Source: an uncultured virus (IMG/VR IMGVR_UViG_3300022856_000004)
Taxonomy: Duplodnaviria; Heunggongvirae; Uroviricota; Caudoviricetes
DNA length: 64,000 nt
Direction: 5' to 3' (one strand)
Virus record (IMG/VR): IMGVR_UViG_3300022856_000004
The translations under genes were made by a program, and so were the position numbers. The notes under the pieces are model-generated. The model did not search any database, had not been told where the DNA came from, and worked only from the letters and a program-made list of their open reading frames with translations. This document shows, piece by piece, positions 16,059-36,071 of the stretch. Position 1 is the first letter of the stretch; every line of letters begins with the position of its first letter.

Positions 16059-16080
16059 CGATTGTCATTTCTAACAATCG
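16059..16080 (-). terminator. Probable terminator after the major capsid gene
   Basis: cgattgt - catttcta - acaatcg hairpin followed by a T7 run on the minus strand. Confidence 0.7.
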
Positions 16081-16111
16081 CTTTATTTTAATCAACTTAC
16101 AATTTATAAAA

Positions 16112-17782: not shown

Positions 17783-17809
17783 TTTTTGTCCTCAATTTAT
17801 TTTTGTTGT

Positions 17810-18934
17810 TTAATCGCCTAAACTGTAATTTAGTATTGATTTGAATTTAGCAAATTGGTCACCTTTACCTTCTGTAATGTTTTTCTTTACAGTTTGATTA
17901 CCAATGTGTTTAGCACTTTCTTTAATTTGTATTTTACTCTTAGGAGCTACATTATTAATGTCAAATGCTTCTGTGAATGATTCGAAGTATATTTTAATAT
18001 CGTTTTCTGATTTAGCAGAATCGAACTTTTCAATTATTCTCTGTCTTGTCTGTGCGTTAATAGGATACTTATCGAAGATAGTATTCAGATATTGTAATTT
18101 AGTTAAGTCTCTCTTCTGTTCAGTTAATGTTTTATTGTAAATACCAATAGCTTGTTTTAACTGTTCGTTCTCATTACTTAACGTTTTATTTTTGTTTTCT
18201 AAAGTGATAACCTTACCTTGTAACTGATCAAATGCATATTTAGATACACTATTAGTTTCTGATAAATTATTATTTACTTCTTCATCTTCTACTATTTCTA
18301 AAGAATCTTCTTCTTCACTAACAGTATCTTCTTCATTCATTTTCTTTTGTTCTGCGTCTGGAGAACTTTTCTTAACCGTACCCATTTCTGAGTTTGGTTC
18401 GTTTTGTTTTGGTGCATCCATATCTTGTGTAGGTGATGCATTTTCTTCTACTTCTTCTTGTTCTTGGTTAATACCAGGTTCGATTTCGTCAGCTGGATCT
18501 AATCCACGTTCTAAATCAGGATCCATTTCTGGTTCTAGTTTTATTCCTAACAATTCTTTCAAAGCATCGATTATATCTTGCTTATCAATTCCCATTTCTG
18601 GTTCTACCTCTGGTTCCATTGTAACTGATTGATCAGTTGCATCAGGTTCCAATGTTGGTACCATATCTTCTTCTACATTGGTTTCATCCAATTTTTCTGA
18701 ATCTGGATCTTCATCCGAAACGTAAAGTTCACTCACCTCCTTTTCGTATGCTTCTTCGTCTTCCTCTTCGGAATCCATTTCAGATAATTTTTCTGAAACC
18801 ACAGCGTTGTTTCTAGGAACAAACTTTTCAGTTAGTGCTCTCTGAACATGTTGCGTGAATAACTCCTTAGAGTCTTCAGCCATATTCATAGCCTCTTCCA
18901 ACATTACGTGTGTATTTGATGTTTCTTTTGACAT
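17810..18934 (-). CDS. Prohead scaffolding protein (T4 gp22-like)
   Basis: Very acidic with a coiled coil, located immediately upstream of the major capsid gene. Confidence 0.75.
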   Translation of the reverse strand: MSKETSNTHVMLEEAMNMAEDSKELFTQHVQRALTEKFVPRNNAVVSEKLSEMDSEEEDEEAYEKEVSELYVSDEDPDSEKLDETNVEEDMVPTLEPDATDQSVTMEPEVEPEMGIDKQDIIDALKELLGIKLEPEMDPDLERGLDPADEIEPGINQEQEEVEENASPTQDMDAPKQNEPNSEMGTVKKSSPDAEQKKMNEEDTVSEEEDSLEIVEDEEVNNNLSETNSVSKYAFDQLQGKVITLENKNKTLSNENEQLKQAIGIYNKTLTEQKRDLTKLQYLNTIFDKYPINAQTRQRIIEKFDSAKSENDIKIYFESFTEAFDINNVAPKSKIQIKESAKHIGNQTVKKNITEGKGDQFAKFKSILNYSLGD

Positions 18935-19080
18935 CTAAAAACCTCTTATATTTCTATGATTATTGTCAATCATAATATTATTATTAAATAACTATGTATG
19001 TTTTAAATGGTTATTACTAGAACCATTATAATTGATGTATTATACACCTTATAAATAAATATAAATAAAAAAACTCAAAA

Positions 19081-19482
19081 TTATTCGTCGTTACCAACTT
19101 CATAGTACCTATCTATAATGATACCAATGGAATCATAACAATTAGATAGTCTTTCTTTTAACGGTCGCAACTCTTGTGCTGTTTTTGTCATTAACTTATA
19201 TGTATCTTTTAATGACTTCATATCTCTATTAACACTAACTTTATCCATCCAATCTTGTGTTTCTTGAAGAGTTAGTATCTCCATATTTTCTATCATATTA
19301 CCTAAACTCTCAATAACTTCATATAATCTATCATCACCATACATAAGTGTTGAATGATTACCATATTCTCGTATTTGATTTAATAACATAGGAACATCAT
19401 TTTTATCTAACGTTCTCTCTGACATACCAGTTAATGATTCATTTATACGATTACTTCTATTTATAATGTCTTTAAAATCCAT
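19081..19482 (-). CDS. Hypothetical head-module protein
   Basis: 133-aa helical ORF between the protease and scaffold genes. Confidence 0.7.
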   Translation of the reverse strand: MDFKDIINRSNRINESLTGMSERTLDKNDVPMLLNQIREYGNHSTLMYGDDRLYEVIESLGNMIENMEILTLQETQDWMDKVSVNRDMKSLKDTYKLMTKTAQELRPLKERLSNCYDSIGIIIDRYYEVGNDE

Positions 19483-19494
19483 TACATTTCCTAT

Positions 19495-19914
19495 TTACTT
19501 TATTTTGCCAAAATTAACTTTTACTATATTATCATTAATTGGATTTTTAATATAGACCATATATTTAGAACTATCACCTAACATTATTTCATTAAGATTA
19601 ATACGATTACCATTGTATTCTCCCTCTTGTAACGTATTGTTCATAGTACCAATATATATATCCATTAATATACTATCTATAATACCTTGTATATTCTGTA
19701 TATCTCTATCAGAATCCTTAGTTGGTTTTAATTTTGAATTTGTCTTATCAGAAAATAATTCTAGTTCTTTCTCTGAAAGAGAATCTGATATATCTATTAT
19801 TGTTTGTTCTACATCTTTAGTTTCACCACGCTTATACGCTAATGCCTGTTTTAGTGTATCACGTTGTTTATCTGCTTTGGATGTCATATACCACATCTCT
19901 GGTTGTATTGACAA
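19495..19914 (-). CDS. Hypothetical head-module protein (true start may be the ATG at 19887)
   Basis: Collinear ORF with ATGA overlap with the protease stop. Confidence 0.65.
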   Translation of the reverse strand: MSIQPEMWYMTSKADKQRDTLKQALAYKRGETKDVEQTIIDISDSLSEKELELFSDKTNSKLKPTKDSDRDIQNIQGIIDSILMDIYIGTMNNTLQEGEYNGNRINLNEIMLGDSSKYMVYIKNPINDNIVKVNFGKIK

Positions 19915-20507
19915 AATATACCGTAGAATATATCATCTACATTTCTTTTTGTATTCTCTACGATAATCTCGGATGCTTCTGATATTGTGTTCTCTCTAAC
20001 TGGATTCATAAAACTACCATGATTAGATGGATTAGTTACAAAATCCCAACCTATCAACTCATAATCATCACATATCTCTGACGCTTCGTTGTTTATTTGT
20101 TTTGTTGAACCAACACCTCTACTTGATATTCCAAACTTATAACCACGTTTGATTATATTAGCTACGATTCTACCGGCTGGATTATCATCTAATATTTCTA
20201 AACGACCCATCACATTATTACCTTCCCACCATATACGTGTTATTACATGCGATGCATTCTTACCTTCAACTACTGTTGACTCTGGATGATCTAACTCACC
20301 ATAAGCACGTTTCTCATTGACAAATTCTTTTATGTATTCTTCTATAATACGTTCAAATATTTTTTTGGGATATACACGTCCATTCTTATTGACTTTATCA
20401 ACTGTAGTTAGTATTCCCTCAACGAACATACGTTTAAGTCCGTTCGTAGATTCATACATAACATTTACAGGTTCAAATATATTATATTCTAATATTGTGT
20501 TTTTCAC
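19884..20507 (-). CDS. Prohead core protease (T4 gp21-like)
   Basis: NKNGRVYP, GELDHP, GISSRGVGS and DFVTNPS motifs. Confidence 0.95.
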   Translation of the reverse strand: MKNTILEYNIFEPVNVMYESTNGLKRMFVEGILTTVDKVNKNGRVYPKKIFERIIEEYIKEFVNEKRAYGELDHPESTVVEGKNASHVITRIWWEGNNVMGRLEILDDNPAGRIVANIIKRGYKFGISSRGVGSTKQINNEASEICDDYELIGWDFVTNPSNHGSFMNPVRENTISEASEIIVENTKRNVDDIFYGIFCQYNQRCGI

Positions 20508-20697
20508 GTTCCAGTTCCGTTTTCCGTTTTATAAACTTCTGTTTTTGCTTTATACTATTCTTCTTTTCAGAAGGGGAAATATGATGTTTAGTTCTATTAA
20601 CTTCGTCTATGAAGTTATGATTTTTTTGTTTCTTCTTGAAACGTTTAAGCATTGAATCAACACTCTCAGTTCCTCTATTGGTAACACCAAAAGACAT
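20482..20697 (-). CDS. rpsU: Phage-encoded ribosomal protein bS21
   Basis: 71-aa basic protein, ESVDSMLKRFKKK...IDEV...HHISPSEKK, matching the bS21 pattern E..D..LKRFK(R/K)...PS. Confidence 0.8.
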   Translation of the reverse strand: MSFGVTNRGTESVDSMLKRFKKKQKNHNFIDEVNRTKHHISPSEKKNSIKQKQKFIKRKTELEREKHNIRI

Positions 20698-20700
20698 ATA

Positions 20701-21162
20701 TCACCTTTCTGTTTCGTTGTATATTGAATCTATCAAACTAATAACTGTATTAGTTTTCTCTCTTAATTTAATTAGCTTATCTTTAGATGATTTCAATAGT
20801 GATGTATCATCCATACCAGTTTCATGTTTTAACTTTGACGTATGCTTTAATTTCTTCTCTAATCCACACATCCAAGAATATAGCAATTTTATAGTTTTGT
20901 TCATTCTGTCTTTATCAGACTTATATGCATCATCAGACTTGTACTCTTTATACGATGCTTCCTTTATTTCATTTTCGCATTTACAAGATTTACCTTTGCA
21001 CTTGCAACTTGATTTATTTCCGAATGCATTTGGTGTTAAGTACCCTGGTGTTGCATCACTTGTATTTCCTGCGTCACACCCACCTGCCCCATCACCATCT
21101 TCATCTAATTCATCATCAGTATCAGGTTCTATTATTTTTTTGTGTATCTTACTAAAATCCAT
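20701..21162 (-). CDS. Hypothetical head-module protein
   Basis: 153 aa with an acidic N-terminus, a PGYLTPNAF motif and a Cys cluster CKCKGKSCKC. Confidence 0.7.
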   Translation of the reverse strand: MDFSKIHKKIIEPDTDDELDEDGDGAGGCDAGNTSDATPGYLTPNAFGNKSSCKCKGKSCKCENEIKEASYKEYKSDDAYKSDKDRMNKTIKLLYSWMCGLEKKLKHTSKLKHETGMDDTSLLKSSKDKLIKLREKTNTVISLIDSIYNETER

Positions 21163-21485
21163 TATCTAACTACTCCATTTCTAATAAATACATATTGTTT
21201 TGCGGATGCATTATTAACGACTTTAGATATACTAAATTCATATAATTCATTAACAGCCAATGCAGTTCCAGGTATAGACCCACCATCTGTAAAGTGTATT
21301 GTACAAGCTGTATTAGTTAGTATAATTGCCCCTGCACCATAATCTGATCCTGTAAATGAACTTGTACTTGTGTTCTGGACTTCTATTACTCTGTTCCATC
21401 TACCTGGATGTCCTTGCATAGCAAATGAATCTAAGTTTATAGTAGGATTTAAACTGTTCTTCTGTTGTGGATTCGGTGTCGCCAT
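21162..21485 (-). CDS. Hypothetical protein, likely virion
   Basis: 107-aa beta-rich ORF with stop/start overlap. Confidence 0.65.
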   Translation of the reverse strand: MATPNPQQKNSLNPTINLDSFAMQGHPGRWNRVIEVQNTSTSSFTGSDYGAGAIILTNTACTIHFTDGGSIPGTALAVNELYEFSISKVVNNASAKQYVFIRNGVVR

Positions 21486-21487
21486 TA

Positions 21488-22315
21488 TTATACCTTTAAT
21501 ACATTAACTAATTCATAAATATATAACATTGTAGCTATATGATTCTTTTGTAATTTTTCTAAACTTGATAACTCGGTAAGTATATCCAATACTTCATCTA
21601 ACTTCACGGATAATACGTTTGAGCTTTGAGTTGTCTTTATTTTATTTATCTCTTCTTGTAATAACGGAATTTTTGATTTTATAAACTCAACCGTCATTTT
21701 TGAATTGGATGAATTTGTTATATATTCAACCAATATTGATTTTTGTTCTTCTGATAAATGTGAGAAACGCTCATTAAATTTCTCTATATATTTATCTAAT
21801 ATCTTAACTCTCTGATCAAATGGCCTATTTAAAAATGAATCCATTTGAATAGTTTGACTTTGTTTTGTCGCTGTTAAGTGATCTAATACAAAATACATAT
21901 GATTTGTAGAATCTTCTTCTGAATACCCACTTTCCATTATAGTATTTATAGATGCTAGTAATTTGTAATTAGGAACTTTAGTTTTAAATAAATCCTTAAT
22001 ATCAGACGTATCTTTTAATTCTTTAACTAAATTATATTTTTCTCTATCTAATTTGTTTTTGTCCAAACCATTAAATCGTTCTATAATATTATCAATTAAT
22101 ATTTGTGCTTTGGTTTCTGATTTTGATGTTGTATTAACTAAAGTTCTATATAAATCATATTCCTTAGCTAATTCTGAATTGCCAGAAAAATACTTCTGTA
22201 ATATAGGTGATACAGTTGATTCTCTTTGATGTAGAATATCATCTGTTATTTTTCTAGTTATAAATTCAAACATCAAACCAGTGTTTCTATATTTAGAATG
22301 CTTATTTTTGCTCAT
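21488..22315 (-). CDS. Conserved-looking hypothetical protein next to the portal gene
   Basis: 275 aa beginning KHSKYRNTGLMFE. Confidence 0.75.
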   Translation of the reverse strand: MSKNKHSKYRNTGLMFEFITRKITDDILHQRESTVSPILQKYFSGNSELAKEYDLYRTLVNTTSKSETKAQILIDNIIERFNGLDKNKLDREKYNLVKELKDTSDIKDLFKTKVPNYKLLASINTIMESGYSEEDSTNHMYFVLDHLTATKQSQTIQMDSFLNRPFDQRVKILDKYIEKFNERFSHLSEEQKSILVEYITNSSNSKMTVEFIKSKIPLLQEEINKIKTTQSSNVLSVKLDEVLDILTELSSLEKLQKNHIATMLYIYELVNVLKV

Positions 22316-22360
22316 TTAACGACTCGTTGGTTTCTTCTTAATTATAAATATAAATAAAAT

Positions 22361-24013
22361 TTAATTTTCTGTATTGGTTTTGTTTTTGATATACGACGTG
22401 TTAGCTAGTTTAGGCTTTTTCATTAACTCTTTATTGCCAAGTGTATCATACGCAAAATTGTTATCATGTGATCCATATTTGTCTCCTTCGGGTGGTCTCC
22501 CAACTGGACTTGATTGTGCTTCACCACCAGTCATAGCAACACCAGTTGATACAGGATCATTACCTTCCATCTCAATTTGTTTATATCTAAACTGTTGTTT
22601 CTTATCTTCTATCATTTGATTACGTGATATTTCTATCTCTTCATCATTCATATTAAATATATGTTTATATATATATTCTGATGGAATCATGTCCAACTCT
22701 CTCATGTGTTTAGATACATTAACTTTTGATTGCATAAGAGTTAACATCTCTTGTTGGTATATAAGTGATGGATTGTTTAATTTTATATCAAACTCTATCA
22801 ACTCATTTAATTCAAATCCCTGTGCAAATAGATGTGTATATGCTATTTCTACTAATGTAGCTTCAATTTGACGTTGTATTCTTTCTATAGTTCTTGCAAA
22901 TCTAACATCTTGTGCTGCTAAACTTGACCTACCAGAACTTTCATCTTCAAATCCCAAATATGATTTTGGAACCATTAGCCCAGCGAATAGTCTATTTTTT
23001 AAATAATCTATTTCATCAATCATATTATTATTATCTAAACCATCTAATGTTTCTATACCAGAACCATCATCTTTACCACGTCTAGGAATAAAATAATCTT
23101 CGTTTAAATTTTGTATGTTATAACGTAAATTATATTCTCCAGTATTTTGATCATAGATTGGAGTTTGTTTCATCTCAGCAGTGATACGTTCTATATAAGC
23201 ATCTACAGCTGATGGTTCTATCCCAGCAACATCTATATTAAATACTCTTTTGTGTGGAGCACGTGTTATTCTATGAATCATCATTGCATCTTCCATCAAT
23301 GATATTTGTTTCCAATGTTTTCTAACACCCTCTATTATAGACTTACCATAAGGTAGAAAGTTAGAATCTGATGTTAATCTAAAATGTGCTAATTCCCACT
23401 TCTCATATCTTTCTTTATTGAAATAATCACCGTATTCACCATAATCATCCTTAATCTTAAAGAATGTTGTTATTCTACCATAATCATCTGCATGCTCAAC
23501 TCTCTCAACAATATAAGGTGATACTGACATTGCATTAACAACACCATAATCTTGCCTAACATCTAATAAAACTGGATAATCACCGTACTTACATGTTTCT
23601 CTAACCCAATTCCATAGGTTCATCTCTATATTCAACACATCATAAAATAAGTTGTCTAATATAGCCTTTAAATCTGCATTATCAGTTTTAACTACTAACA
23701 TATCACCACGTTCATTGACTAGTGTAGCTTCATCAGCATACACCTTTAACGCAGCAGATATGATAGAATCTTTATCCATCATCTCGTAATCTTTGAATAA
23801 ATCCATACGTTCTTGATTGAAATTATATGAATTATTTTCATAATCCACCAAACTTCTACGCATAACTAATCTTTTGTATCTATCAGATGTATAGGGTGAA
23901 CCTGCACTCTGTATTACATTAGGATCAATTATTTTTAATTTATTCTTATCAATTCTCTGTACTATTACGTTTCCAGAGAATAGTTTATTTAACCTATCTT
24001 TTAAACTTGCCAT
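22361..24013 (-). CDS. Portal protein (T4 gp20-like)
   Basis: LMEDAMMIHRITRAP..RVFNIDV, EDYFIP and IETL.G motifs. Confidence 0.96.
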   Translation of the reverse strand: MASLKDRLNKLFSGNVIVQRIDKNKLKIIDPNVIQSAGSPYTSDRYKRLVMRRSLVDYENNSYNFNQERMDLFKDYEMMDKDSIISAALKVYADEATLVNERGDMLVVKTDNADLKAILDNLFYDVLNIEMNLWNWVRETCKYGDYPVLLDVRQDYGVVNAMSVSPYIVERVEHADDYGRITTFFKIKDDYGEYGDYFNKERYEKWELAHFRLTSDSNFLPYGKSIIEGVRKHWKQISLMEDAMMIHRITRAPHKRVFNIDVAGIEPSAVDAYIERITAEMKQTPIYDQNTGEYNLRYNIQNLNEDYFIPRRGKDDGSGIETLDGLDNNNMIDEIDYLKNRLFAGLMVPKSYLGFEDESSGRSSLAAQDVRFARTIERIQRQIEATLVEIAYTHLFAQGFELNELIEFDIKLNNPSLIYQQEMLTLMQSKVNVSKHMRELDMIPSEYIYKHIFNMNDEEIEISRNQMIEDKKQQFRYKQIEMEGNDPVSTGVAMTGGEAQSSPVGRPPEGDKYGSHDNNFAYDTLGNKELMKKPKLANTSYIKNKTNTEN

Positions 24014-24038
24014 TGTATATAAATATAATTGAATTTTT

Positions 24039-25631
24039 CTATAATAGTGATCTTAAATCAAATGAATCCCCATTACCAACTTTCATTTGCCAAGGATCTT
24101 CATTTTTAAATTGATGTTCGTTTTTAACTCGTTTGATGTTTCGTAGCATAGACATCTTAATATTACTACCTGCACCTCTAACTCTAACTGCAAAATCTCT
24201 AGTATATAGTCCTATTGCCATAGCAATAACTAAGTCATCATTATACCCTTTTGCTGCTTGTGTTTTTCTACCATCCCATATAAACGAATACATTTCATTT
24301 ATAAGTCTAAGTGAATTTATTTTTGGTCGTGATGTATATACACCATTATGATCCATTTCTCTAAAATATAATGCTAATTTATCAATTATTAATTCACGTG
24401 TTACGTGTGACATAGTAAATCCAGGTGTCATACCATCTTTATTATATCTATAATCGTATTTATAAGCATTAGAGCTATCATCAAGAACATTAATAGCTGA
24501 TTTTGAATAATATATATTGTCATAACCAATATCAATAACATCCTGTATTACAGCCCAACCAATACTATTATTCTCAACTACCAACATAGCATTATTATAT
24601 TCTCTAGCTATAGATACAACTCTATTAGCGAATAACTTAGTATCAACCTGACCTTTGTATTCAGCCACTTGTTTTAATTCATTAACTTCTAATACTTGTA
24701 CAGTTGAATAATCCGAACCGTTTCCACGTGCAACATCGACAGCAACTACATAATCATGTTTGTTTGATGCCTCTTCCCATATCCAAAAATCATTGTTATA
24801 ACGAGTTTCGATTGGATCATTACATAATTTTTTGTATTCTTCTAATATCCTATGCTCTATCAATGAGTTACCTGACGAAGCGAAATCGCAATCATATTCC
24901 TGTGCGGCCTGTTTTTCACCTAACTCTATAGTTTGTCTATCTCTGAATGCTTGGTCTTGATCTGGATGTAAGTACCAAGGTAATTTTATAAAATTAAATC
25001 CATTAACACCTGCTTCTGCATTAGCCCACATATTATGAAAGAAATTTGCAGTTCCGTTTGGAGTTGATAAAAGTATAGTCGAACCACCTCGTGATAGGGT
25101 TGCTTGTGCTGATGTCCAAATCTCCGAAATATCATTAATAAACGCAATTTCATCAATTATTAATAGACTTAGAGCCTCTGACCTACCTGCATTCGGAGAT
25201 GAACCAACTGCCTTTATTCTAGATCCATTCTTTAATACTAATGAAGTTTTATTATCTTCTTTTCTCGGTACCATAGACCTAAGAAATGTAGGTAGATTTT
25301 CATACATCAACTTAACTTTTCTAATTAAGTTTATAGCTGTCTTCTCATCAATTGCAATTACAAGTATATTCCTATTCTGCTCAAATATCATCATATGAAC
25401 ACATCGCATAGCAGTTAGAGTAGATATTCCCATCTGTCTAGCTTTAAGTATTATGTTTCTATCATGTTCCATAATAGATAATAATGCTTTCTCTTGAAAT
25501 TCATACAGTTCAAATGGAACAACACCTTTCATCGGATGTTCTACTTTACAATACTTTTTAGCAAAATAAACTATATCTTGCTTACACTTTAGTAATTCTG
25601 GTTTTAAACTTTCTAATATTTTCTTATTCAT
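24039..25631 (-). CDS. terL: Terminase large subunit
   Basis: KARQMGIST Walker A, LIIDE Walker B, LSTPNG, VDVARG and DDLV motifs. Confidence 0.97.
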   Translation of the reverse strand: MNKKILESLKPELLKCKQDIVYFAKKYCKVEHPMKGVVPFELYEFQEKALLSIMEHDRNIILKARQMGISTLTAMRCVHMMIFEQNRNILVIAIDEKTAINLIRKVKLMYENLPTFLRSMVPRKEDNKTSLVLKNGSRIKAVGSSPNAGRSEALSLLIIDEIAFINDISEIWTSAQATLSRGGSTILLSTPNGTANFFHNMWANAEAGVNGFNFIKLPWYLHPDQDQAFRDRQTIELGEKQAAQEYDCDFASSGNSLIEHRILEEYKKLCNDPIETRYNNDFWIWEEASNKHDYVVAVDVARGNGSDYSTVQVLEVNELKQVAEYKGQVDTKLFANRVVSIAREYNNAMLVVENNSIGWAVIQDVIDIGYDNIYYSKSAINVLDDSSNAYKYDYRYNKDGMTPGFTMSHVTRELIIDKLALYFREMDHNGVYTSRPKINSLRLINEMYSFIWDGRKTQAAKGYNDDLVIAMAIGLYTRDFAVRVRGAGSNIKMSMLRNIKRVKNEHQFKNEDPWQMKVGNGDSFDLRSLL

Positions 25632-25635
25632 AATC

Positions 25636-26031
25636 TTATAACATTATTAATATACCTAAAATCAACCCAGTTCCTAACCATAGTTCTTTTCTATCATACC
25701 ATTTAGGTTGTAACTCTTCTATTCTTATCTTCTGTAGATTTATTATATCTTGATTTAACTTCTGTGATTTATCATATTCAGTTAATAAAAATTGATGTTC
25801 TTTTATAGTTGACTTATATAGTTCTATTTGTGACATCCTATTATGTATAATACTATCTTTATTATCAGATATATCGGTTAATATTTCTATCTTCTTCTGT
25901 AACTCATATATCTTAAATCCATATTTATACAAGTTCTCTCTTGGTAAACAAGTATCAGATTTCATTATATCAACTTGCGAATATAAACTGTATGTTGATA
26001 ATATGAATATTAATATTATTATTCTACTCAT
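25636..26031 (-). CDS. Spanin-like envelope protein (signal peptide, coiled coil, C-terminal membrane anchor)
   Basis: Hydrophobic N- and C-termini, overlapping the upstream TM/coiled-coil gene. Confidence 0.5.
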   Translation of the reverse strand: MSRIIILIFILSTYSLYSQVDIMKSDTCLPRENLYKYGFKIYELQKKIEILTDISDNKDSIIHNRMSQIELYKSTIKEHQFLLTEYDKSQKLNQDIINLQKIRIEELQPKWYDRKELWLGTGLILGILIML

Positions 26032-26353
26032 TATCTATATTCCTAAGAATTGCTATTGATTCGTCATATGTTATTTTTTCTTGTTCTCTTATAGCTGAAA
26101 ATGTGGCTATTAACTCTTGTTCTCTGGTATCTAACTCAGATAGTTTAATGTCTAATTCTTTTATGTTTCTATCTGAAACTTCTATATTATGTTTTAGTTC
26201 TTCTTTTCTACTTTCTATAAATTTAGATTCTGAACTTTTAGTATCTAACTTATTTTTATTATCTTCTAATTTAGATTCTCTATTCTTTTTATCATAAACA
26301 AAAAATCCAATTATACCCAAAACAACAATAATTATATAATTTATAATTTCCAT
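26024..26353 (-). CDS. i-spanin (Rz)-like protein
   Basis: N-terminal TM helix followed by a long coiled coil. Confidence 0.55.
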   Translation of the reverse strand: MEIINYIIIVVLGIIGFFVYDKKNRESKLEDNKNKLDTKSSESKFIESRKEELKHNIEVSDRNIKELDIKLSELDTREQELIATFSAIREQEKITYDESIAILRNIDNE

Positions 26354-26369
26354 AATAACCTTAAATTTA

Positions 26370-26921
26370 TTAAAAAATACCTACCCATGGTATTGGTGGT
26401 GATGGTATTGGTCCAGTTGGAGAAGGAACCAAACCATTATAAACACCATTTATAGTCGTTGTATGCGTTCTTAACGCTAATATCATACTTTGTATGGTAA
26501 TATTGGTTGTCTTACCACTAAACGCCATTAATGATGCTTTAAGTGCAACTTCCAATGAATTTATATCACCTGGAAATACAACTACACATGGAGTTGGTAT
26601 TGGCATAGGTAATATAGTTGGTGGGTGAGGTGGTAATGGTGAAAATTGTGATCCAGCCCAAAACCCTACAAACCCACTAGCTACCAATTTCATATTTAAC
26701 TTTGATGTGGCTCTAGCTAATAAAAATGCACTTTCTAAATTAGATTGTAATATAGCTTTGTTATAAGTTAATAAACTATTTTGTAACATTGTAGTTGCAG
26801 ATAGCATTCCTATTTCATATGCATCTGCTATTGATTTAGCTGCGTCTCTTTCATTAGATGGTCTTTTTTTTGTAAATATAATATCTAATTGAGTTTCTAT
26901 CAACTTCCAATTTATAGCCAT
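26370..26921 (-). CDS. Hypothetical Pro-rich protein
   Basis: 183 aa with PPHPP and PSPTGPIPSPPIPW segments. Confidence 0.7.
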   Translation of the reverse strand: MAINWKLIETQLDIIFTKKRPSNERDAAKSIADAYEIGMLSATTMLQNSLLTYNKAILQSNLESAFLLARATSKLNMKLVASGFVGFWAGSQFSPLPPHPPTILPMPIPTPCVVVFPGDINSLEVALKASLMAFSGKTTNITIQSMILALRTHTTTINGVYNGLVPSPTGPIPSPPIPWVGIF

Positions 26922-26927
26922 TAAACC

Positions 26928-27449
26928 TTAATTTTTAAATTCTTTGATTACATATGATATTATACCAGCTATAGCAGTTAACCCAAATACTATCATTTGC
27001 CAATTAGTTCTAGCCCATTTAAATACATCAATACTATCAGTAACTGTACTTATAGACAATATTGGTGGGTTTAAATTTATCAGTTCGGTTACTTGTGCTA
27101 AATAACATATAAATTCACCATCTGAACTTCTAACTGGTGATACATTCAATAAAACCCAAACTATAACTCCAGTCTTAGTTATATAACGTTTCTTCATTCT
27201 ATAAGATGGAACTTCACCATCATATATACGCTTGGTCATCTCAACATCAGAATCTACATCATCTGGGTGAGTTATTGATTGGAATGTTTTTAATTGTATT
27301 TCTGCTAGATTATATTCAATTACATTCAAATATATATCATTTGCATGTAGAATTAAACCATCTTTGGATACTAATAATATCCCAACTATAGAGTTGTTCC
27401 ATATACTATCAAATATATTCTCTTTCATAGATGAATCTATAACAAACAA
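26928..27449 (-). CDS. PAS/PAC-domain protein with C-terminal transmembrane helix
   Basis: GILLVSKDGLILHAN, ITHPDD, KRYITKTG.IVWV and VRSSDGE are PAS S-box/PAC hallmarks. TM segment MIVFGLTAIAGIISYVI. Confidence 0.9.
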   Translation of the reverse strand: MFVIDSSMKENIFDSIWNNSIVGILLVSKDGLILHANDIYLNVIEYNLAEIQLKTFQSITHPDDVDSDVEMTKRIYDGEVPSYRMKKRYITKTGVIVWVLLNVSPVRSSDGEFICYLAQVTELINLNPPILSISTVTDSIDVFKWARTNWQMIVFGLTAIAGIISYVIKEFKN

Positions 27450-27634
27450 GATAATTCCTCTATAACAACCTTAAATTCTGATGATCTAACGTTTTCATGA
27501 CAACCTTTAATATCAGTACCACTACATAATTTATCAAGTACATAGTCTCTTAATTGGCATTTTAATGTACACCAATTTTCATTTTTCATATCATTGATAG
27601 TACACACATCACATTTATTAATACCATGTCTCAT
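27437..27634 (-). CDS. Small Cys-rich hypothetical protein
   Basis: 65 aa with 7 Cys (CxxC, CxxxC). It fills the gap between the holin-like and PAS genes. Confidence 0.55.
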   Translation of the reverse strand: MRHGINKCDVCTINDMKNENWCTLKCQLRDYVLDKLCSGTDIKGCHENVRSSEFKVVIEELSCLL

Positions 27635-27646
27635 TCATATTACCAT

Positions 27647-27925
27647 TTATTTATCGTTAAGACTTTTTATAGTTGCCTTAACTCTTCTAGTGGCATCTGT
27701 AAACTTTTCAGTTGCAGTTACACCTAATCCAACAACAACCAAATATAGAAACCCATCGAATATATAATCTAATATAATCATACCAAACCATAAATTACAT
27801 ACCCAAGTAATTATCATCACTAAAAACCCTAAAAATGTTATTAGTCTTTTAGATGATAAATCACCATCTACATCAGAGAATATCTCTCTTAAATTTTTTA
27901 ATAATGCTTCTAAAAAATTCTTCAC
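27647..27925 (-). CDS. Holin-like two-TM membrane protein
   Basis: 92 aa, SSKR followed by two TM helices and a basic C-terminal tail. Confidence 0.6.
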   Translation of the reverse strand: MKNFLEALLKNLREIFSDVDGDLSSKRLITFLGFLVMIITWVCNLWFGMIILDYIFDGFLYLVVVGLGVTATEKFTDATRRVKATIKSLNDK

Positions 27926-28530
27926 ATAACTTCCTCATCTGTTATATTATATTGTTTCTTAACTTCTGATTTATATCTCTCGAAATCATCAATTATATCT
28001 TTCTTCACTTGTTCTGGATCTAATTTAGACCATTTATCTACTGTTCCATTCTCTCGTATAGTGCTAAAGTTCTCTAATGCATTCACCATATCTTGTAATT
28101 CTGTTTGTTTATCTTTAAGATAAGATATAGCATTTTGCTTAACTTTATTTTTTTCGTATTCTTCCCAATTACCATCAACTCTAATTTTAGTTTCTAGTTT
28201 GGCTACACATTTACCACACATACCCATTAAATTTCTGAATTTCTTGTCTAATCTGGTTTCATTGTATTGATTTACATTACATATTTCCATAGGACATGAA
28301 TTATATTTATTTATCTCTGCTCGAATATCGTCTAACTTGGTTACTTTAGATTTATATCCATTCATCTGCTCCCATTCAATTCCATCTAACCCTACCCAAG
28401 TTTCACCTATCTTACGTTGAATATCTTTTTCATTACTACCATAACCAATTTGAACATTTACAAAATCACCACTGAGAACTCGTTTTACATCATTAAGATT
28501 ATTAATTTGTACTCTTTCTTTAGACATCAA
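27922..28530 (-). CDS. Hypothetical protein with Cys pairs
   Basis: 202 aa with GETW..DG..WEQ.NG, CPMEIC and CGKC. Confidence 0.7.
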   Translation of the reverse strand: MMSKERVQINNLNDVKRVLSGDFVNVQIGYGSNEKDIQRKIGETWVGLDGIEWEQMNGYKSKVTKLDDIRAEINKYNSCPMEICNVNQYNETRLDKKFRNLMGMCGKCVAKLETKIRVDGNWEEYEKNKVKQNAISYLKDKQTELQDMVNALENFSTIRENGTVDKWSKLDPEQVKKDIIDDFERYKSEVKKQYNITDEEVM

Positions 28531-28592
28531 ACACCTTTAAATTTACAATTTTATAAATATAAATATAAATTAAAATACTATCAATCTATTAT

Positions 28593-28928
28593 TTAACGTT
28601 CATGTTCTATATTGTTTAATGATTCTTCCATTTTATTCAGTTGGTTTGTTAATGTAGTGTTATTAGCAGCTGCACTTTCCAAATTCATCTTTAATTCTTT
28701 AACTTCTGATTTGTTGTATATTTCTTCTAAATGTAATATACGTTCTTTTATATCATTATCTGCTAATATAAGTCTCTCATGACGTTTATCAGTTCTATCT
28801 TGTAAAGCTGTAAAATTCCAATATATAGTTGATAATGTAAATGTTGCTGACACTAACATTGAAGTCCACAATGCAATTGCACCGATGCTTATATTTATTT
28901 TTTTATTGAATTCTTCTATATTTGCCAC
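28593..28928 (-). CDS. Single-TM coiled-coil protein
   Basis: N-terminal hydrophobic helix plus heptad tail. Confidence 0.65.
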   Translation of the reverse strand: MANIEEFNKKINISIGAIALWTSMLVSATFTLSTIYWNFTALQDRTDKRHERLILADNDIKERILHLEEIYNKSEVKELKMNLESAAANNTTLTNQLNKMEESLNNIEHER

Positions 28929-28941
28929 TTTAAATCCAAAT

Positions 28942-29625
28942 TTATGATTTGATTCTGCCTTTTTGTCCGTATATCATTTTGATTTGACCTTTGCTTAATT
29001 TAACACCATAAGCTCTAATATTACATAATGCTCCATCTAACGAACCACTTGCTTTATAATCATCTCTTGTACCGATTAATAAAACATTTGTACTATCCAC
29101 TTTCGCATTACCTGTAAAAGTAAATGAATAAACAGAGTTACCGTCTTTAAATGTTTCTAAATTTAAAGAGTCAAATGTCGCTACATAATGATACCAAACA
29201 CTATTAGAAAAAGTCCAGTTATTATCTGAAAGATGTCTAGGAGTAGAGCTACCGTCATAAGAATATTGTCCTATTGATTTCGGCGAACTATTGCTTTGTA
29301 TTAAAATAGATGCTTGGCTATCTGTACTAAATCCACTTATAAAACCTCTTGTAGTTGAACTTGCATCGTGGTAAATATGGAACATTATAGTCCCTTGATT
29401 ATTCATATAACCAGCTATATTATTTAATACTGAACTTACAAGACTTAAATATTTATTCCCTGCTCCTGTAAAATCAAATGCTCTATTACTTTCTCCATTT
29501 ACACCTGCTCTAAATCCAACTGAACCTGTATTAGTAATAGTGTGATTATTAACAGAATTATCATTTGATGTATTATTACCAATAATATTAGTATAAGGTC
29601 TTCTCGCTATCTGCCCAAATATCAT
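28942..29625 (-). CDS. LamG/concanavalin-like lectin-domain protein (candidate receptor-binding tip)
   Basis: WYHYVATFD, FKDG, LIG and LDGALCNIRAY motifs. Confidence 0.75.
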   Translation of the reverse strand: MIFGQIARRPYTNIIGNNTSNDNSVNNHTITNTGSVGFRAGVNGESNRAFDFTGAGNKYLSLVSSVLNNIAGYMNNQGTIMFHIYHDASSTTRGFISGFSTDSQASILIQSNSSPKSIGQYSYDGSSTPRHLSDNNWTFSNSVWYHYVATFDSLNLETFKDGNSVYSFTFTGNAKVDSTNVLLIGTRDDYKASGSLDGALCNIRAYGVKLSKGQIKMIYGQKGRIKS

Positions 29626-29640
29626 ATCATATTATCCATT

Positions 29641-30210
29641 TTATAAACTAACATCATAATTATCTAATGCTGAGCCAGATAAGGTGTGGATTGTATTTTC
29701 TTTTGCTGTTTTGACAGGTTTTATAGTTGCATAACTACCAACAAACGTCATAAAGAATATATCCCATTCCAAATCTGTAACGTATTTTTGTGATCCACTT
29801 GCATCTGTTATAGAGGCAGTTATTATATTCCGTGTATATAATTCATTCTCTGATTTTAGTTTTCTATCTTTCTCAATCGCTTGATTCCAATCTGCAATAT
29901 TCCCTTTTGTATTATCATCTAATAAGAAATGTTTAGATTGATATACTATTCCTTCGTTTATTTTATTTGTATAGTTCTCTTCTAATTGTGATATTTTTTG
30001 ATTTCTTATTTGTTCTACTGAAACTTCTGGTATTGTTCCGTTGAAAACATAATCATAATTCTTTTGAGAATACACTATGTCATTAAACCGTGTTAAATCG
30101 GCTTCTTCTAATAATCTATAAGTCCAGTTTCCATTTGGATATAAATTACTAACTTGATTTTCATTAAAATCTATAAATTGATTTGCTTTTCTAAAATAAT
30201 ATTTAGGCAT
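29641..30210 (-). CDS. Tail-fibre assembly/chaperone-like protein (DUF4376-like)
   Basis: EQIRNQKISQL...GIVYQ pattern, located in the fibre cluster. Confidence 0.5.
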   Translation of the reverse strand: MPKYYFRKANQFIDFNENQVSNLYPNGNWTYRLLEEADLTRFNDIVYSQKNYDYVFNGTIPEVSVEQIRNQKISQLEENYTNKINEGIVYQSKHFLLDDNTKGNIADWNQAIEKDRKLKSENELYTRNIITASITDASGSQKYVTDLEWDIFFMTFVGSYATIKPVKTAKENTIHTLSGSALDNYDVSL

Positions 30211-30621: not shown

Positions 30622-31350
30622 TTATATTCTTATTCTGCCTTTTTGCTTGTTTAGGATTGCTGCGCTCAATCCACCTAAATTTGACGAGTGTATAGTATAA
30701 TTGGACATATCCAAATCCAAATATTGATTACCACCCGTTTGATAATTAAGTCCTATTTTCACTGCTTTCCAAGATGTTACATTTGATTGTTCTCCCTGAA
30801 CATTAAAATATGTTACGGTACCAGATGATATAAAAATCCCATTCACATATAAACTTATGGTTTTATTAACTATGATGTATAGAAAATGATTCCAATTGAT
30901 TAATTCTAATTCTAATCCAACCATATCAAATGTTACCATTTTGCCAGTGAAATTGTGCCCTCCTCCATATGATGTTGAATATGGTTGTGTATATACTTGT
31001 AAAGCATCATTACTGTTCAATAAAATTGCAAAATATCGTTTGGATAAATTATCATTATTACCGTAACCGAGTATCGGATTGCTACCTACATCTGAATTCA
31101 TTTTACAGAATACTGATATAGTTTTCGTATTTGAATTTGAGGGTAATAATGTTGATGCATTATCACCGAGATCTAAATAATCAGATGATGAGAATGATCC
31201 AGCTTTATTACTTTCTCCTAATTGATTAGTTGTGAAAGTAACCCCATTATTAATGACTGAATATGAATTCATTGAAGAATCCTGTGTAGAATTATCAAAT
31301 GCTAAATTCATCTCAGGTCTTTTTGCTATATATTGTCCGAATAATGGCAT
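30622..31350 (-). CDS. LamG/concanavalin-like lectin-domain protein
   Basis: WNHF...LYVNG and KIG motifs. Paralogue of 28942..29625. Confidence 0.75.
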   Translation of the reverse strand: MPLFGQYIAKRPEMNLAFDNSTQDSSMNSYSVINNGVTFTTNQLGESNKAGSFSSSDYLDLGDNASTLLPSNSNTKTISVFCKMNSDVGSNPILGYGNNDNLSKRYFAILLNSNDALQVYTQPYSTSYGGGHNFTGKMVTFDMVGLELELINWNHFLYIIVNKTISLYVNGIFISSGTVTYFNVQGEQSNVTSWKAVKIGLNYQTGGNQYLDLDMSNYTIHSSNLGGLSAAILNKQKGRIRI

Positions 31351-34300
31351 TACTCTGTTGGACCTCCAGTAAATATTATCTCACCATCACCATCTTTGAA
31401 TAATTCAAATACACCTCTTTCACTACCACTTAATATAAATGAACCACCAAAGTTATCAAACACATTAGCATGACTATTATTTATAGTTCTATTACTTCCA
31501 TCGGTTTTAAATACAAACATATGACGAACACTTTCAACTAATGAACTTGTATTTACATAGGTCAAATCGAAATTACCATCCATTAATGTTTTTATATGAT
31601 TATATGTTCCTAATTCTAAACTACCAACTGATTCATTTGAAGATGTTATCATTTGCCATTTACTATCTAATAAATCTAATTGACTTCCAGATGATAATTG
31701 ATACCATTCTGTAGATGGATTGAAATATATAGATGATGTAGTTTCTGAATATCCTACTATTCTAAGGAATGTATTTCCAGTTGAAGGCTGTGTTGATGTT
31801 GGTCTTCCAGTTTCACTTAAATACATAACTGTTGATGGTGTCAATCCATTATATATATTACCACTATTACCCAGTTCTGAGAACGTTCCAAGTGTATTAT
31901 GTGCTACATCGGTAGTTGCCAACACTAATTTCTTAGATGATGCAACTTCCGTTAAATTAGTTGATACTTTAACACTTCCACTTTGATATACATAACATAT
32001 AGAGCCACTTGATATACTACCAGACGCTATGTATTGTGTTTCAGATTTATAAAAATCTAAATCTGTTATTTGTTGAGATGAAGAAATAGTATTTGTATCT
32101 TCTAATGAAAAATTACCAAATCCAAATCCAAATTCTTGTGCTGACCTTGAAACTTCTAAGTTGAAATTTGTTATAGACGAAGTTGTAATTGGTAAGAATT
32201 GATTAGAGCTACTAATAATATTATCACCAGTCTTCTCTAAAAACATATCATACGTTGATATTTGTGTAGATGATGATATTATATTACTTTCTATTATAGA
32301 ACCACTTATTCTAATTGTACCCGATAGTATAGTTTCTCCATCAAGTATAGCTAATCCATAATTCTTAAATGTATTTGAGCCACTAACCGTTAATGTAGAG
32401 AAATAACCACTACCACTAAATGAACCTGTGAATGAACCTGTAAGCCAAGTTGTATCTCCATCTTCTATAGAGTTTTGTGGTGCACCTGGTATTTGAGAAT
32501 AAATTATTTGTGCTGAATTTGTTATCATTGATGCAGAAGTCAATATTGATTGTGATATTATTGGTTCTATAGATCTAGCTAATTCAAATAAAGTTATAGA
32601 TCTATTATCATTATCACTTACAGATCTAAATGGGAATATATCAGTATAACCAGCTGTAGGTTTAACTATTAAATTGTTTAAGTCTAAAGAAAATTCAGTA
32701 GTAGATAAACCTAAACCACCATTTGTAGCTGCTGTGTATGTCCCACCACCACCACCACCAAATCCATATGCAGCTGCTGATTTTGAAACTTCTAAATCGA
32801 AATTATCAATTGATATAGTAGCTATACTTCCTGTAAATGAACCAGTATATTGATGTGTTGTTGATTGGAAGTATGCACCCGCAGTTGGTATTGTTATAAC
32901 GTCAGTTAATTGTTCTGATTGAGATATTATACCACTGCCACTCAGGCATTCCTCACATGATTTTGTACTAAATCCTGCATCTGTTAATGACGAAGTAAAT
33001 TGATCTGATGACGAATATATAGTTGGTTTATTAGTTATAAAATTAAAATCTATTTGTTCTGATGAAGAAACTATACCGCTGCCACTTAGACATTCACTAC
33101 AATCAAATATATCGGAGAATACACCAGATACATGAGTATAGAAGTTATCTATAGATTCAGTACCAACACTACCTGTGAATGAACCACTAAATGAACCAGA
33201 GAATGAACCACTAAAACTAAATGTATTATTACTAAATATCTCTTGTAATTGATCTGATGATGATATTATACCACTACCTTGTAAACAAGCATCACAATCT
33301 AAAATTTCAGAGTATATATTTGATATATGACCATAGAAATTATCTATAGATTCTGTACCTATACTTCCAGTGAATGAACCACTTATACTAAACACATTAT
33401 TGTTAAACATGTCTTGTAATTGACCCGATGAAGATATTATTCCACTACCATCTAAACATTCAGAACAATCAAATATATCAGAAAATACACCTGATACGTG
33501 ACTATGAAAGTCATTTATTGATTCTGTACCAATATTATATAATTCACTACCATCACCATAAAAACTACCAGTGAATGACCCCGTATATGCCAATGAATAT
33601 GATACAAATAAGTTACTTACTATTGTAGATTCTAAACCTTTACCTAAATGATAAAATGTTAATGTTTTATGTAGATTCTCATTTATATCATAAAATGCTA
33701 TTCTATCATCTTCAGTTGTCTCTGCATACGTAACCGGTTGTAAATTTGGAAATTCTAATGAAAACCGTCTTTCTAATGACATAGAAAGACCACTACCAGC
33801 CCCATTAGTTCCATATGAACCTAAAGTTTCACCATTTAACGATAAACTACCAGTGATATTAACACTACCAGTATATAGATGAGTATCATCTAATGTATCA
33901 CCGTGATTAGTAGAGCCACTCATATAACTTGTAGTTATATATGTAACTGAGCTACTAACTATAAATGTATTCGCAGTAACAGAATTAAATGTTACATTAT
34001 CTGTAGATGATAACCCTAATTGTTCTGATTGAGAAACAATCCCACTGCCATTTATTATTTGGGCTGATGATGAAACTATATTACTTTCTAAAAATACACC
34101 AGATCCAGATATATTTTGATTTCTAAAATTTATTGTTGAATCAGCTTCTTTTATATTTTTAGTACCAGTACCGGAAGTTACTAATAATATATTTGGTGCT
34201 GAAGATGTAATCATATCAACTGTACCAGTACCAGTATCAGCTGTATAGTCACTACCAATACCAACGTACCCACTATCATCTATAACTAATGGAGTATACG

Positions 34301-36071
34301 TAGTTGGTTTAGATGGTAATTCGGATGCTGTTATATCAGATATATGTATTCTTGAACCAGATTTGTAAAAATCTAAATCTATTAATTGTTGAGATGAAGA
34401 AATAGTATTTGTATCTTCTAATGAAAAATTACCAAATCCAAATTCTTGTGCTGACCTTGAAACTTCTAAATTAAAATTTGTTATAGAAGAAGTTGTTATA
34501 GGTAAGAATTGATTAGAACTAGAAAATAAACTATTTCCTATTAAGATTTGTGACGATTCAGATATTTCATATCCTAAACCTAATATTTGTATAGAAGTTG
34601 AAACAATTCCATTACCATTTAAATCTTCTATTGAAAAGTTACCAAATCCATATGTAGCTGCTGATTTTGAAACATCAGTTGAGAAATTGTCTATTTGTGA
34701 TGATGATAAGTTAGTTAATTCACTACCATCACCATAAAAACTACCAGTGAATGACCCCGTATATGCCAATGAATATGATACAAATAAGTTACTTACTATT
34801 GTAGATTCTAAACCTTTACCTAAATGATAAAATGTTAATGTTTTATGTAGATTCTCATTTATATCATAAAATGCTATTCTATCATCTTCAGTTGTCTCTG
34901 CATACGTAACCGGTTGTAAATTTGGAAATTCTAATGAAAACCGTCTTTCTAATGACATAGAAAGACCACTACCAGCCCCATTAGTTCCATATGAACCTAA
35001 AGTTTCACCATTTAACGATAAACTACCAGTGATATTAACACTACCAGTATATAGATGAGTATCATCTAATGTATCACCGTGATTAGTAGAGCCACTCATA
35101 TAACTTGTAGTTATATATGTAACTGAGCTACTAACTATAAATGTATTCGCAGTAACAGAATTAAATGTTACATTATCTGTAGATGATAACCCTAATTGTT
35201 CTGATTGAGAAACAATCCCACTGCCATTTATTATTTGGGCTGATGATGAAACTATATTACTTTCTAAAAATACACCAGATCCAGATATATTTTGATTTCT
35301 AAAATTTATTGTTGAATCAGCTTCTTTTATATTTTTAGTACCAGTACCGGAAGTTACTAATAATATATTTGGTGCTGAAGATGTAATCATATCAACTGTA
35401 CCAGTACCAGTATCAGCTGTATAGTCACTACCAATACCAATAGTTCCATCAGAATCGATTACTAATGGAGAGTATAATGATGTTTTGCTTGGTAAATCAG
35501 ATGCTGTTATATCTGATATATGTATTCTTGAACCAGATTTATAAAAATCTAAATCTGTTATTTGTTGAGATGAAGAAATAGTATTTGTATCTTCTAATGA
35601 AAAATTACCAAATCCGTTTGATTGTGCTGATCTTGAAACTTCTAAATTAAAATTTGTTATAGACGAAGTTGTTATAGGTAAGAATTGATCAGATGAAGAA
35701 AATAAACTATTTCCAATTAATATTTGTGACGATTCAGATATTTCATATCCTAAACCTAATATTTGTATAGAAGTTGAAACAATTCCATTACCATTTAAAT
35801 CTTCTATTGAAAAGTTACCAAACCCAGATGTAGCTGCTGATTTTGAAACTTCTAAGTTGAAATTTGTTATAGACGAAGTTGTTATACTAACTATATTACT
35901 ACCATTACCATAAAATGAACCAGAGAACATTTCTGCTGATGCTGTTTTAAAGTGAAGTATTGGTGGTTGTGATCCAGATCCGTCTAGTATCGATTGGTTA
36001 TCACCTGGGCTTATTTGTAGTAACCTTTGATACGTTTCGGATACTATACTACCTGATAAATCATATGACAT
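31350..36071 (-). CDS. Long Ser/Thr/Gly-rich tail fibre protein with internal duplication
   Basis: 1573 aa with many SGS/TGS and IISSS repeats, a 392-aa duplication and CxxC repeats. Confidence 0.8.
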   Translation of the reverse strand: MSYDLSGSIVSETYQRLLQISPGDNQSILDGSGSQPPILHFKTASAEMFSGSFYGNGSNIVSITTSSITNFNLEVSKSAATSGFGNFSIEDLNGNGIVSTSIQILGLGYEISESSQILIGNSLFSSSDQFLPITTSSITNFNLEVSRSAQSNGFGNFSLEDTNTISSSQQITDLDFYKSGSRIHISDITASDLPSKTSLYSPLVIDSDGTIGIGSDYTADTGTGTVDMITSSAPNILLVTSGTGTKNIKEADSTINFRNQNISGSGVFLESNIVSSSAQIINGSGIVSQSEQLGLSSTDNVTFNSVTANTFIVSSSVTYITTSYMSGSTNHGDTLDDTHLYTGSVNITGSLSLNGETLGSYGTNGAGSGLSMSLERRFSLEFPNLQPVTYAETTEDDRIAFYDINENLHKTLTFYHLGKGLESTIVSNLFVSYSLAYTGSFTGSFYGDGSELTNLSSSQIDNFSTDVSKSAATYGFGNFSIEDLNGNGIVSTSIQILGLGYEISESSQILIGNSLFSSSNQFLPITTSSITNFNLEVSRSAQEFGFGNFSLEDTNTISSSQQLIDLDFYKSGSRIHISDITASELPSKPTTYTPLVIDDSGYVGIGSDYTADTGTGTVDMITSSAPNILLVTSGTGTKNIKEADSTINFRNQNISGSGVFLESNIVSSSAQIINGSGIVSQSEQLGLSSTDNVTFNSVTANTFIVSSSVTYITTSYMSGSTNHGDTLDDTHLYTGSVNITGSLSLNGETLGSYGTNGAGSGLSMSLERRFSLEFPNLQPVTYAETTEDDRIAFYDINENLHKTLTFYHLGKGLESTIVSNLFVSYSLAYTGSFTGSFYGDGSELYNIGTESINDFHSHVSGVFSDIFDCSECLDGSGIISSSGQLQDMFNNNVFSISGSFTGSIGTESIDNFYGHISNIYSEILDCDACLQGSGIISSSDQLQEIFSNNTFSFSGSFSGSFSGSFTGSVGTESIDNFYTHVSGVFSDIFDCSECLSGSGIVSSSEQIDFNFITNKPTIYSSSDQFTSSLTDAGFSTKSCEECLSGSGIISQSEQLTDVITIPTAGAYFQSTTHQYTGSFTGSIATISIDNFDLEVSKSAAAYGFGGGGGGTYTAATNGGLGLSTTEFSLDLNNLIVKPTAGYTDIFPFRSVSDNDNRSITLFELARSIEPIISQSILTSASMITNSAQIIYSQIPGAPQNSIEDGDTTWLTGSFTGSFSGSGYFSTLTVSGSNTFKNYGLAILDGETILSGTIRISGSIIESNIISSSTQISTYDMFLEKTGDNIISSSNQFLPITTSSITNFNLEVSRSAQEFGFGFGNFSLEDTNTISSSQQITDLDFYKSETQYIASGSISSGSICYVYQSGSVKVSTNLTEVASSKKLVLATTDVAHNTLGTFSELGNSGNIYNGLTPSTVMYLSETGRPTSTQPSTGNTFLRIVGYSETTSSIYFNPSTEWYQLSSGSQLDLLDSKWQMITSSNESVGSLELGTYNHIKTLMDGNFDLTYVNTSSLVESVRHMFVFKTDGSNRTINNSHANVFDNFGGSFILSGSERGVFELFKDGDGEIIFTGGPTE
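33540..35849 (-). repeat. 1176-bp-period tandem duplication in the fibre gene
   Basis: 33540-34673 matches 34716-35849. The part 33540-34264 reads identical to 34716-35440. Confidence 0.95.

Follow-up and report, generated by a model that had tools for sequence, protein, structure and literature searches.

A phage-borne PAS protein with a C-terminal membrane segment, found near peptidoglycan hydrolase genes in unrelated phages

The timing of lysis determines burst size and influences phage ecology, and lysis inhibition in T4 is the best-studied signal input to a holin. In the window analysed here (the whole 64,000-nt stretch of uncultured phage DNA), a gene encoding a PAS domain, a membrane segment and no output domain (PAS-TM) lies among small genes upstream of the terminase. 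What such a protein could do there, and whether it might bear on the timing of lysis, is the question raised by the following block:

27922..28530, minus strand: conserved soluble protein, 202 aa, heading the block; homologues in Mel-JY01, Immutovirus and L003
27647..27925, minus strand: small membrane protein with two TM segments and a basic C-terminus, 92 aa, holin candidate with weak family matches
27437..27634, minus strand: Cys-rich protein (CxxC...Cx3C), 65 aa, overlapping the PAS-TM start; four Cys kept in L003
26928..27449, minus strand: PAS domain, amphipathic helix and single C-terminal TM segment, 173 aa (Pfam PAS/PAS_3, AF2 model, PDB PAS folds)
26370..26921, minus strand: Pro-rich helical phage protein, 183 aa; ESM Atlas fold likeness to a viral CHAP/M15 protein domain
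26024..26353, minus strand: N-terminal TM segment and coiled coil, inner-membrane spanin-like, 109 aa; phrog_7584 (Rz-like), E 0.0067
25636..26031, minus strand: signal peptide, coiled coil and C-terminal hydrophobic helix, 131 aa; weak match to phi18:3 gp095
24039..25631, minus strand: T4-like terminase large subunit, directly downstream (context)

The gene order given in a preliminary description of this DNA is borne out: all six ORFs from the two-TM gene to the signal-peptide gene are present on the minus strand, as a single packed run that ends in the terminase (intergene gaps of +12, -13, +6, +16, -8 and +4 nt). A promoter and terminator scan of positions 24000-29700 was uninformative (51 promoter-like sites versus 43 +/- 8 in shuffles; no terminators).

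That the 173-aa protein combines a PAS domain with a C-terminal TM segment and has no output domain, as had been proposed, is confirmed by Pfam (PAS, E 1.7e-8; PAS_3, E 2.3e-8; both above the cut-off), the AlphaFold model and hydropathy. In the model (mean pLDDT 86.9), the PAS core spans residues ~6-122 and is followed by a loose linker, a short helix (142-148) and a 23-residue helix (150-172), within which the hydropathy scan places the TM segment at residues 150-168. The five-strand sheet and helical connector of the PAS fold are present, the best Foldseek match being the PAS domain of NifL (2gj3, E 3.5e-8, rmsd 2.1). The PAS domain is not followed by a kinase, GGDEF or HTH domain. Translation starts at TTG, with an ATG at codon 8 as an alternative; the homologue in L003 also has a TTG start, and its position 8 is not Met.

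The neighbouring genes had been taken for a holin and a pair of spanins, and in both cases the layout stands while the family evidence stays weak. The 92-aa protein has the size and shape of a holin (small, one to four TM segments, charged C-terminus), with two hydrophobic segments and a basic tail, but its match to Phage_holin_3_6 (E 0.033, 14.7 bits) lies below the cut-off of 28.4. It also matches phrog_1322 'membrane protein' (E 1e-4), and its homologues occur in L003, Mel-JY01 and Caulobacter phage Cr30, in the last of these between baseplate and tape-measure genes. The 109-aa protein has the N-terminal TM segment and periplasmic coiled coil of an i-spanin; it is the only one of the pair with Rz-like PHROG matches, which are weak (E 0.007 and 0.09), and its Mel-JY01 counterpart matches phrog_7584 (E 0.005). 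No lipobox was found in either member of the pair (26024-26353 and 25636-26031; the first 35 residues of the 131-aa protein were checked), and because of this the 131-aa protein is, as judged by its N-terminus, not a canonical o-spanin. A cysteine, Cys28, follows its predicted signal and is missing in the Mel-JY01 counterpart. The same protein weakly matches phi18:3 gp095 (E 7e-4, probability 27%), which is encoded three genes past an annotated glycosyl hydrolase.

Two further genes of the run are less easily placed. The ESM Atlas structure of the Pro-rich protein resembles one cluster that is 88% CHAP (TM 0.67) and another that is 90% Peptidase_M15_4 (TM 0.54), a likeness seen in the Atlas alone and treated as a lead; the Atlas clusters of this family have 80-135 mostly viral members. 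The protein's own model is poor (pLDDT 52) and gave no BFVD structure match, and two longer Pro-rich homologues contain no Pfam domains. The Cys-rich ORF is real, as had been supposed, since Cys 8, 11, 22 and 26 are all retained in L003 at 39% identity. It has no family match in Pfam or PHROG and could act as a metal ligand. The suggested partnership with the PAS protein was not upheld as a general one: a homologue beside a PAS gene was found only in L003, and the members of the PAS-TM family in lysis cassettes have no adjacent small Cys-rich gene. Small Cys-rich genes with two CxxC-like motifs lie just downstream of, and overlap, the PAS-TM ends at L115:5533-5763 and L116:5545-5745.

No endolysin gene is present inside the window cassette. 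The window comes from a phage record of 134,590 bp (28% GC, ~69% complete) that carries a T4-like terminase together with portal, prohead protease, major capsid, tail tube and baseplate genes. Two genes of this record bear on the endolysin and on the host:

L211:4428-4913 (G000 C1:126428-126913): protein with an SLT domain and a hydrophobic N-terminal segment, just beyond the window end
L209:3949-5505 (G000 C1:41949-43505): Por-tail phage protein, with a signal peptide and a weak Por match

The SLT gene, 37 kb from PAS-TM and adjoined by a three-TM gene, is the sole peptidoglycan hydrolase found in this ~69% complete record; its product is possibly membrane-anchored and possibly the endolysin, being the one candidate found in the genome. 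The second gene weakly matches the C-terminal sorting domain of Por (type IX) secretion (E 2e-5, below the cut-off). The head cluster includes a gene for ribosomal protein bS21 (window 20482-20697, minus strand), on the strand of the structural genes. In the clades covered by the available text of PMC9723584, bS21 is opposite in strand to the structural genes, and S21 phages with such a gene set are assigned to Bacteroidetes. A Bacteroidota host is likely because of this gene set (PMC9723584) and the weak Por tail match; the nearest cultured record bears the label Microcystis phage.

Every gene of the block is kept in the same order in L003. The cultured phage Mel-JY01 keeps the 202-aa, two-TM, Pro-rich, N-terminal-TM, signal-peptide and terminase genes, with an unrelated gene for a soluble protein of about 125 aa in place of the Cys-rich and PAS-TM genes, and its genome contains no PAS_3 match. 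PAS-TM is therefore accessory and, together with the Cys-rich gene, forms a unit that can be exchanged within an otherwise conserved late block. That block is likely a lysis module, with a holin and spanins as plausible identities of the local neighbours. The holin-shaped gene, the weak Rz-like matches in two phages, the pair of the same shape in phi18:3 three genes past a glycosyl hydrolase and the CHAP/M15-like fold of the Pro-rich protein argue for it, whereas the missing lipobox and endolysin, the matches below cut-off and the position of the Cr30 two-TM homologue among tail genes argue against it. Scattered lysis genes are normal for T4-like phages. The possibility that an Immutovirus 'ferredoxin' near the homologue of the 202-aa gene is an M15 endolysin in disguise was rejected after inspection of its sequence.

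The retention of the Mel-JY01 block without PAS-TM would also suit a different role, that of a membrane-anchored moron directed at the host, for example as a decoy that pairs with the PAS domains of its kinases or diguanylate cyclases, or as a modulator of superinfection or defence. Its proximity to lysis genes would then mark the place where late-expressed extra genes are inserted. This role is possible but rather unlikely.

Of the 328 proteins recovered by a profile search, the 120 best include 65 that share the layout, comprising 39 recognised by an automatic single-PAS-plus-TM test and 26 added by eye, which have a weaker hydrophobic tail and an identical preceding motif. The family alignment (A10) has 67 rows, i.e., these 65 proteins and two locus translations. 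Residues N37, E50, I59, T60, H61, R88 and Y89 are invariant in all 67, and an H61-P62-D63-D64...R88 motif is conserved family-wide. Lys and Arg are denser before the TM segment than after it in 53/67 members, which places the PAS domain inside, and at most 20 residues follow the segment in 59/67; the predicted topology is a cytoplasmic PAS domain with a short periplasmic tail. A quick tree of the PAS domain alone (116 columns) puts 49 PAS-TM domains on one side of a branch and the 40 best-scoring cellular PAS domains on the other (SH-aLRT 98), which is compatible with a single origin. Two TM-less phage PAS genes (L090 and L104) were rejected as members, as they fall outside the family branch on long branches. 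The one at L090:4902-5646 overlaps an XhlA-like gene (Pfam E 0.01) and resembles a split PAS-TM.

Among 206 fetched loci, a stand-alone PAS-TM gene occurs in 43, which reduce to 22 distinct loci, with L121 as a further incomplete one. The layout was seen in only one of the 80 loci retained from bacterial and archaeal genomes (L135, a Verrucomicrobiales MAG copy with no phage hallmarks within about 2 kb), and by this count the family is mostly phage-borne. An ESM Atlas cluster of 187-aa PAS proteins has 83 members, all viral, and BFVD contains further short phage PAS proteins. A tblastn search of 50,697 annotated phage records with PAS-TM gave no match, so no cultured phage with the family was found, and the 150 matches listed from an HMM search of 1.84 billion representatives are all long multi-PAS proteins. 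For the moron, the solitary MAG copy counts in favour, as does the PAS type, which is that of cellular multi-domain signalling proteins.

The gene contexts of these relatives carry most of the case for lysis. A Pfam-named peptidoglycan hydrolase gene, of four kinds, lies at most 2 kb from PAS-TM in 6 of the 22 distinct loci, and a seventh can be set beside them:

L064: Amidase_2, 1.9 kb from PAS-TM
L102: Amidase_2, 18 bp from PAS-TM
L100: Amidase_3 within 2 kb of PAS-TM
L096-099: CHAP within 2 kb of PAS-TM
L123: CHAP, back to back with PAS-TM
L073: M15_4 and C92 peptidase within 2 kb of PAS-TM
L108 (seventh locus): DUF5675 gene 17 bp downstream, followed by a small membrane gene and an N-terminal-TM gene

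The DUF5675 protein is a putative endolysin, and the counts are given both with and without it. By its predicted products, L102 is a textbook lysis cassette in which PAS-TM immediately precedes the amidase (coiled-coil-TM, PAS-TM, amidase, two-TM, and N-terminal-TM with an overlapping lipoprotein-like gene). In the close kin L098 and L100, PAS-TM keeps its place at the head of the cassette while the endolysin class and the holin candidate differ. The lysis-linked members are spread over several sub-branches of the quick tree. The constant place at the cassette head despite the change of endolysin, and the spacing of 17-18 bp to the L102 amidase and the L108 DUF5675 gene, speak against a moron whose position merely follows an insertion site.

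Other loci look different. In 15 of the 22 no hydrolase was found within about 2 kb (L039 and L112 being too short to judge), which supports a moron. In two near-complete genomes without a hydrolase nearby, PAS-TM stands beside thymidylate synthase (G008) or, on the opposite strand, beside a Clp-type ATPase (G011). It lies among metabolic genes of large phages in L025, L101, L110/111, L112 and L114; the positions in L025, L101, L110/111 and L114, in metabolic surroundings or on the strand opposite to that of the nearby genes, likewise favour a moron. In L083, L087, L116 and L121 it directly follows tail genes, and in the window, L003, L094 and L115 it precedes the terminase. Adjacency to terminase genes (the window, L094 and L115) and to preceding tail genes could reflect a role in tethering virion assembly or DNA packaging to the membrane, with no part in lysis. 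Such a tether is improbable, given the very diverse hosts and virion types of the family and the fact that lysis cassettes are common near terminase and tail genes.

The excess of hydrolase neighbours was compared with chance. As a control, 18 whole viral records were searched with nine hydrolase families, four of which had been picked after being seen next to PAS-TM; six of the seven hydrolase-type matches fell within 2 kb of PAS-TM, and the seventh was the SLT gene of the window genome at 37 kb. After close relatives were merged and two near-complete genomes lacking any match were scored as misses, 5/8 were observed against 1.05 expected under random placement (P 2.5e-4). Against a null confined to a late third of the genome, the excess was weaker (4/6 observed, P 0.016; P 0.10 without DUF5675). 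An earlier model of 17 loci, which omits L039, L112, L121 and L135 as short or non-viral, was run under three assumptions, for which P was 4e-4, 0.014 and, for the most cautious, 0.18. Searches for GH108 and GH19 matched nowhere, controls included, so that absence of these families is not inferable from them. The proximity to hydrolases is thus real when set against random placement, but a general preference for late regions may account for part of it. Random contexts of the homologues, named beforehand as grounds for abandoning the lysis link, were not what was found, as hydrolase neighbours recur in unrelated phages. The link itself holds through these relatives beside Amidase_2, Amidase_3, CHAP and M15 genes, and not through the window locus.

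If PAS-TM takes part in lysis, it could be the holin itself or act on one. As a holin with one TM pass and a folded, soluble domain for control, it would mirror T4 T, whose folded domain is periplasmic and probably GAF-like. The amphipathic helix and single TM segment, and a loose aromatic-x-K/R-x-N motif upstream of the segment in 52/67 members, are in keeping with such a holin, as are L073 and L093, in which no small two-TM gene was seen downstream. This identity is nevertheless improbable: a separate small two-helix protein, the holin candidate, is encoded in L064, L098, L100, L102 and L108 as well as in the window (a cassette layout absent in most other loci), the TM segment is weakly hydrophobic in 26/65 family proteins, and a related phage manages without the gene.

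The preferred role for PAS-TM, with about an even chance of being correct, is that of an accessory lysis protein: a partner of the holin that adjusts the time of lysis in response to a predicted cytoplasmic input. The protein would be expressed late, its TM segment and amphipathic helix would contact the separate two-TM holin, as XhlA probably does with XhlB of PBSX and RIII with T of T4, and a ligand- or dimer-driven change in the PAS domain would delay or release hole formation. XhlA has the same layout, with its soluble part ahead of a C-terminal TM segment; that soluble part is a short coiled coil, as opposed to a PAS domain, and the PAS-TM protein has no XhlA match in Pfam. In the XhlA/XhlB/XlyA system, according to the available text of PMC10630273, an extra cassette membrane protein is likewise probably complexed with a separate holin; XhlA is described there as essential, whereas PAS-TM is absent from the related Mel-JY01 block. 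T4 lysis inhibition by T, RI and RIII, as far as described in the available text of PMC8385771, is similarly a membrane control of lysis through a soluble domain and partners, with RIII binding the cytoplasmic side of T. RI responds to a periplasmic cue (PMC8385771, same part), whereas the sensor-type domain of PAS-TM is N-terminal, has a PAS fold and is predicted to be cytoplasmic. No T, RI or RIII family matches were found among the window cassette proteins in Pfam or PHROG. VqmA-Phage of vibriophage VP882 is also a phage-encoded PAS receptor tied to a lysis decision (PMC8284805, available text); it is a soluble DNA-binding transcription factor, whereas PAS-TM has a TM segment and no DNA-binding domain. 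PAS domains in phage lysis decisions and holin partners are thus known from VqmA-Phage and from T4 and PBSX, respectively, and an output-less PAS-TM in lysis cassettes is apparently new: a full-text literature search, with most subscription journals and supplements outside its reach, found no description of one.

The nature of the input is narrowed by the residues of the PAS domain. Cofactor determinants of PAS classes, including the F-alpha His of heme-binding FixL and DosP, are set out in the available text of PMC10468136. The window PAS-TM has no such F-alpha His, and the 67 rows have no conserved column for it, with any His within residues 63-77 in 11/67. The F-alpha Trp of the FAD type (NifL/Aer) occurs in none of the 67 rows over the same residues. 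In LOV domains the photoactive Cys sits in a GxNCRFLQ motif, which is absent from all 67 rows, where positions 55-58 are T/N, W/F/Y, Q and S. Sensing of redox, O2 or light through a known cofactor, as previously suggested, is unsupported because the 67 members lack, or do not conserve, these FixL-heme, FAD and LOV residues, and the input is probably not of the FixL-type heme-O2, FAD redox or LOV light kind. H61 lies near the place of the Aer2-type heme His (E-alpha/E-eta) in 67/67, yet belongs to the generic HPDD motif; it may be used as in Aer2. By motif comparison alone, H61-P62-D63-D64...R88 matches the H(P)(D/E)D...R motif of PAS cluster 8, which PMC10468136, in its available text, calls largely unstudied; there the word 'virus' does not occur and 'phage' appears in one reference alone.

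A possible counterpart emerged from the BFVD structure search, which matched two uncharacterised Cellulophaga phage proteins, of 240 aa in phi19:1 (E 1.8e-4) and 172 aa in phi18:3 (E 5e-3), assigned to the following genes by protein length only:

L216:39102-39620: phi18:3 gp090, N-terminal TM segment and putative PAS-like part
L217:6202-6924: phi19:1 gp108, N-terminal TM segment and putative PAS-like part

In both, a hydrophobic N-terminal segment precedes the putative PAS-like part, and each matches the other's PHROG family (phrog_10199 / phrog_31932, function unannotated). The gp090 gene lies two genes upstream of a glycosyl hydrolase, and gp108 follows a weak holin match and precedes a lysozyme by 1.5 kb. 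Homology to PAS-TM was rejected (hhalign probability 0.3%), which leaves a separate family. Its members are probably a mirror image of the PAS-TM layout, with a PAS-like domain in a T4-T-like topology, and they strengthen the theme of PAS domains near lysis genes; their location near Cellulophaga phage lysis genes also counts for PAS-TM being a holin itself. A broader proposal, in which the PAS-TM family are widespread ligand-gated lysis timers whose cytoplasmic sensor acts directly on the holin, so that lytic phages of very different hosts set burst time from a host metabolite without transcription, and the Cellulophaga mirror family does likewise from the periplasm, is speculative and somewhat doubtful. 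Through an output-less PAS domain in the cassettes of unrelated phages, host physiology might be coupled directly to lysis; the small complete cassettes of L102 and L100, with the cultured Cellulophaga phages, make a test of this candidate feasible.

Some other features of the window genome may be mentioned. A run of glycosyltransferase and sugar-nucleotide enzyme-like genes, recognised by reading the sequence, extends from L207:11317-20000 to L208:3621 (G000 C1 about 11300-23600). Five tandem paralogous short ORFs built of repeats follow at L208:3981-6081 (G000 C1:23981-26081), four of them with near-identical N-terminal residues. At positions 31350-36071 of the window (minus strand), a fibre-like protein of 1573 aa is encoded, which contains an internal duplication spanning several hundred residues.
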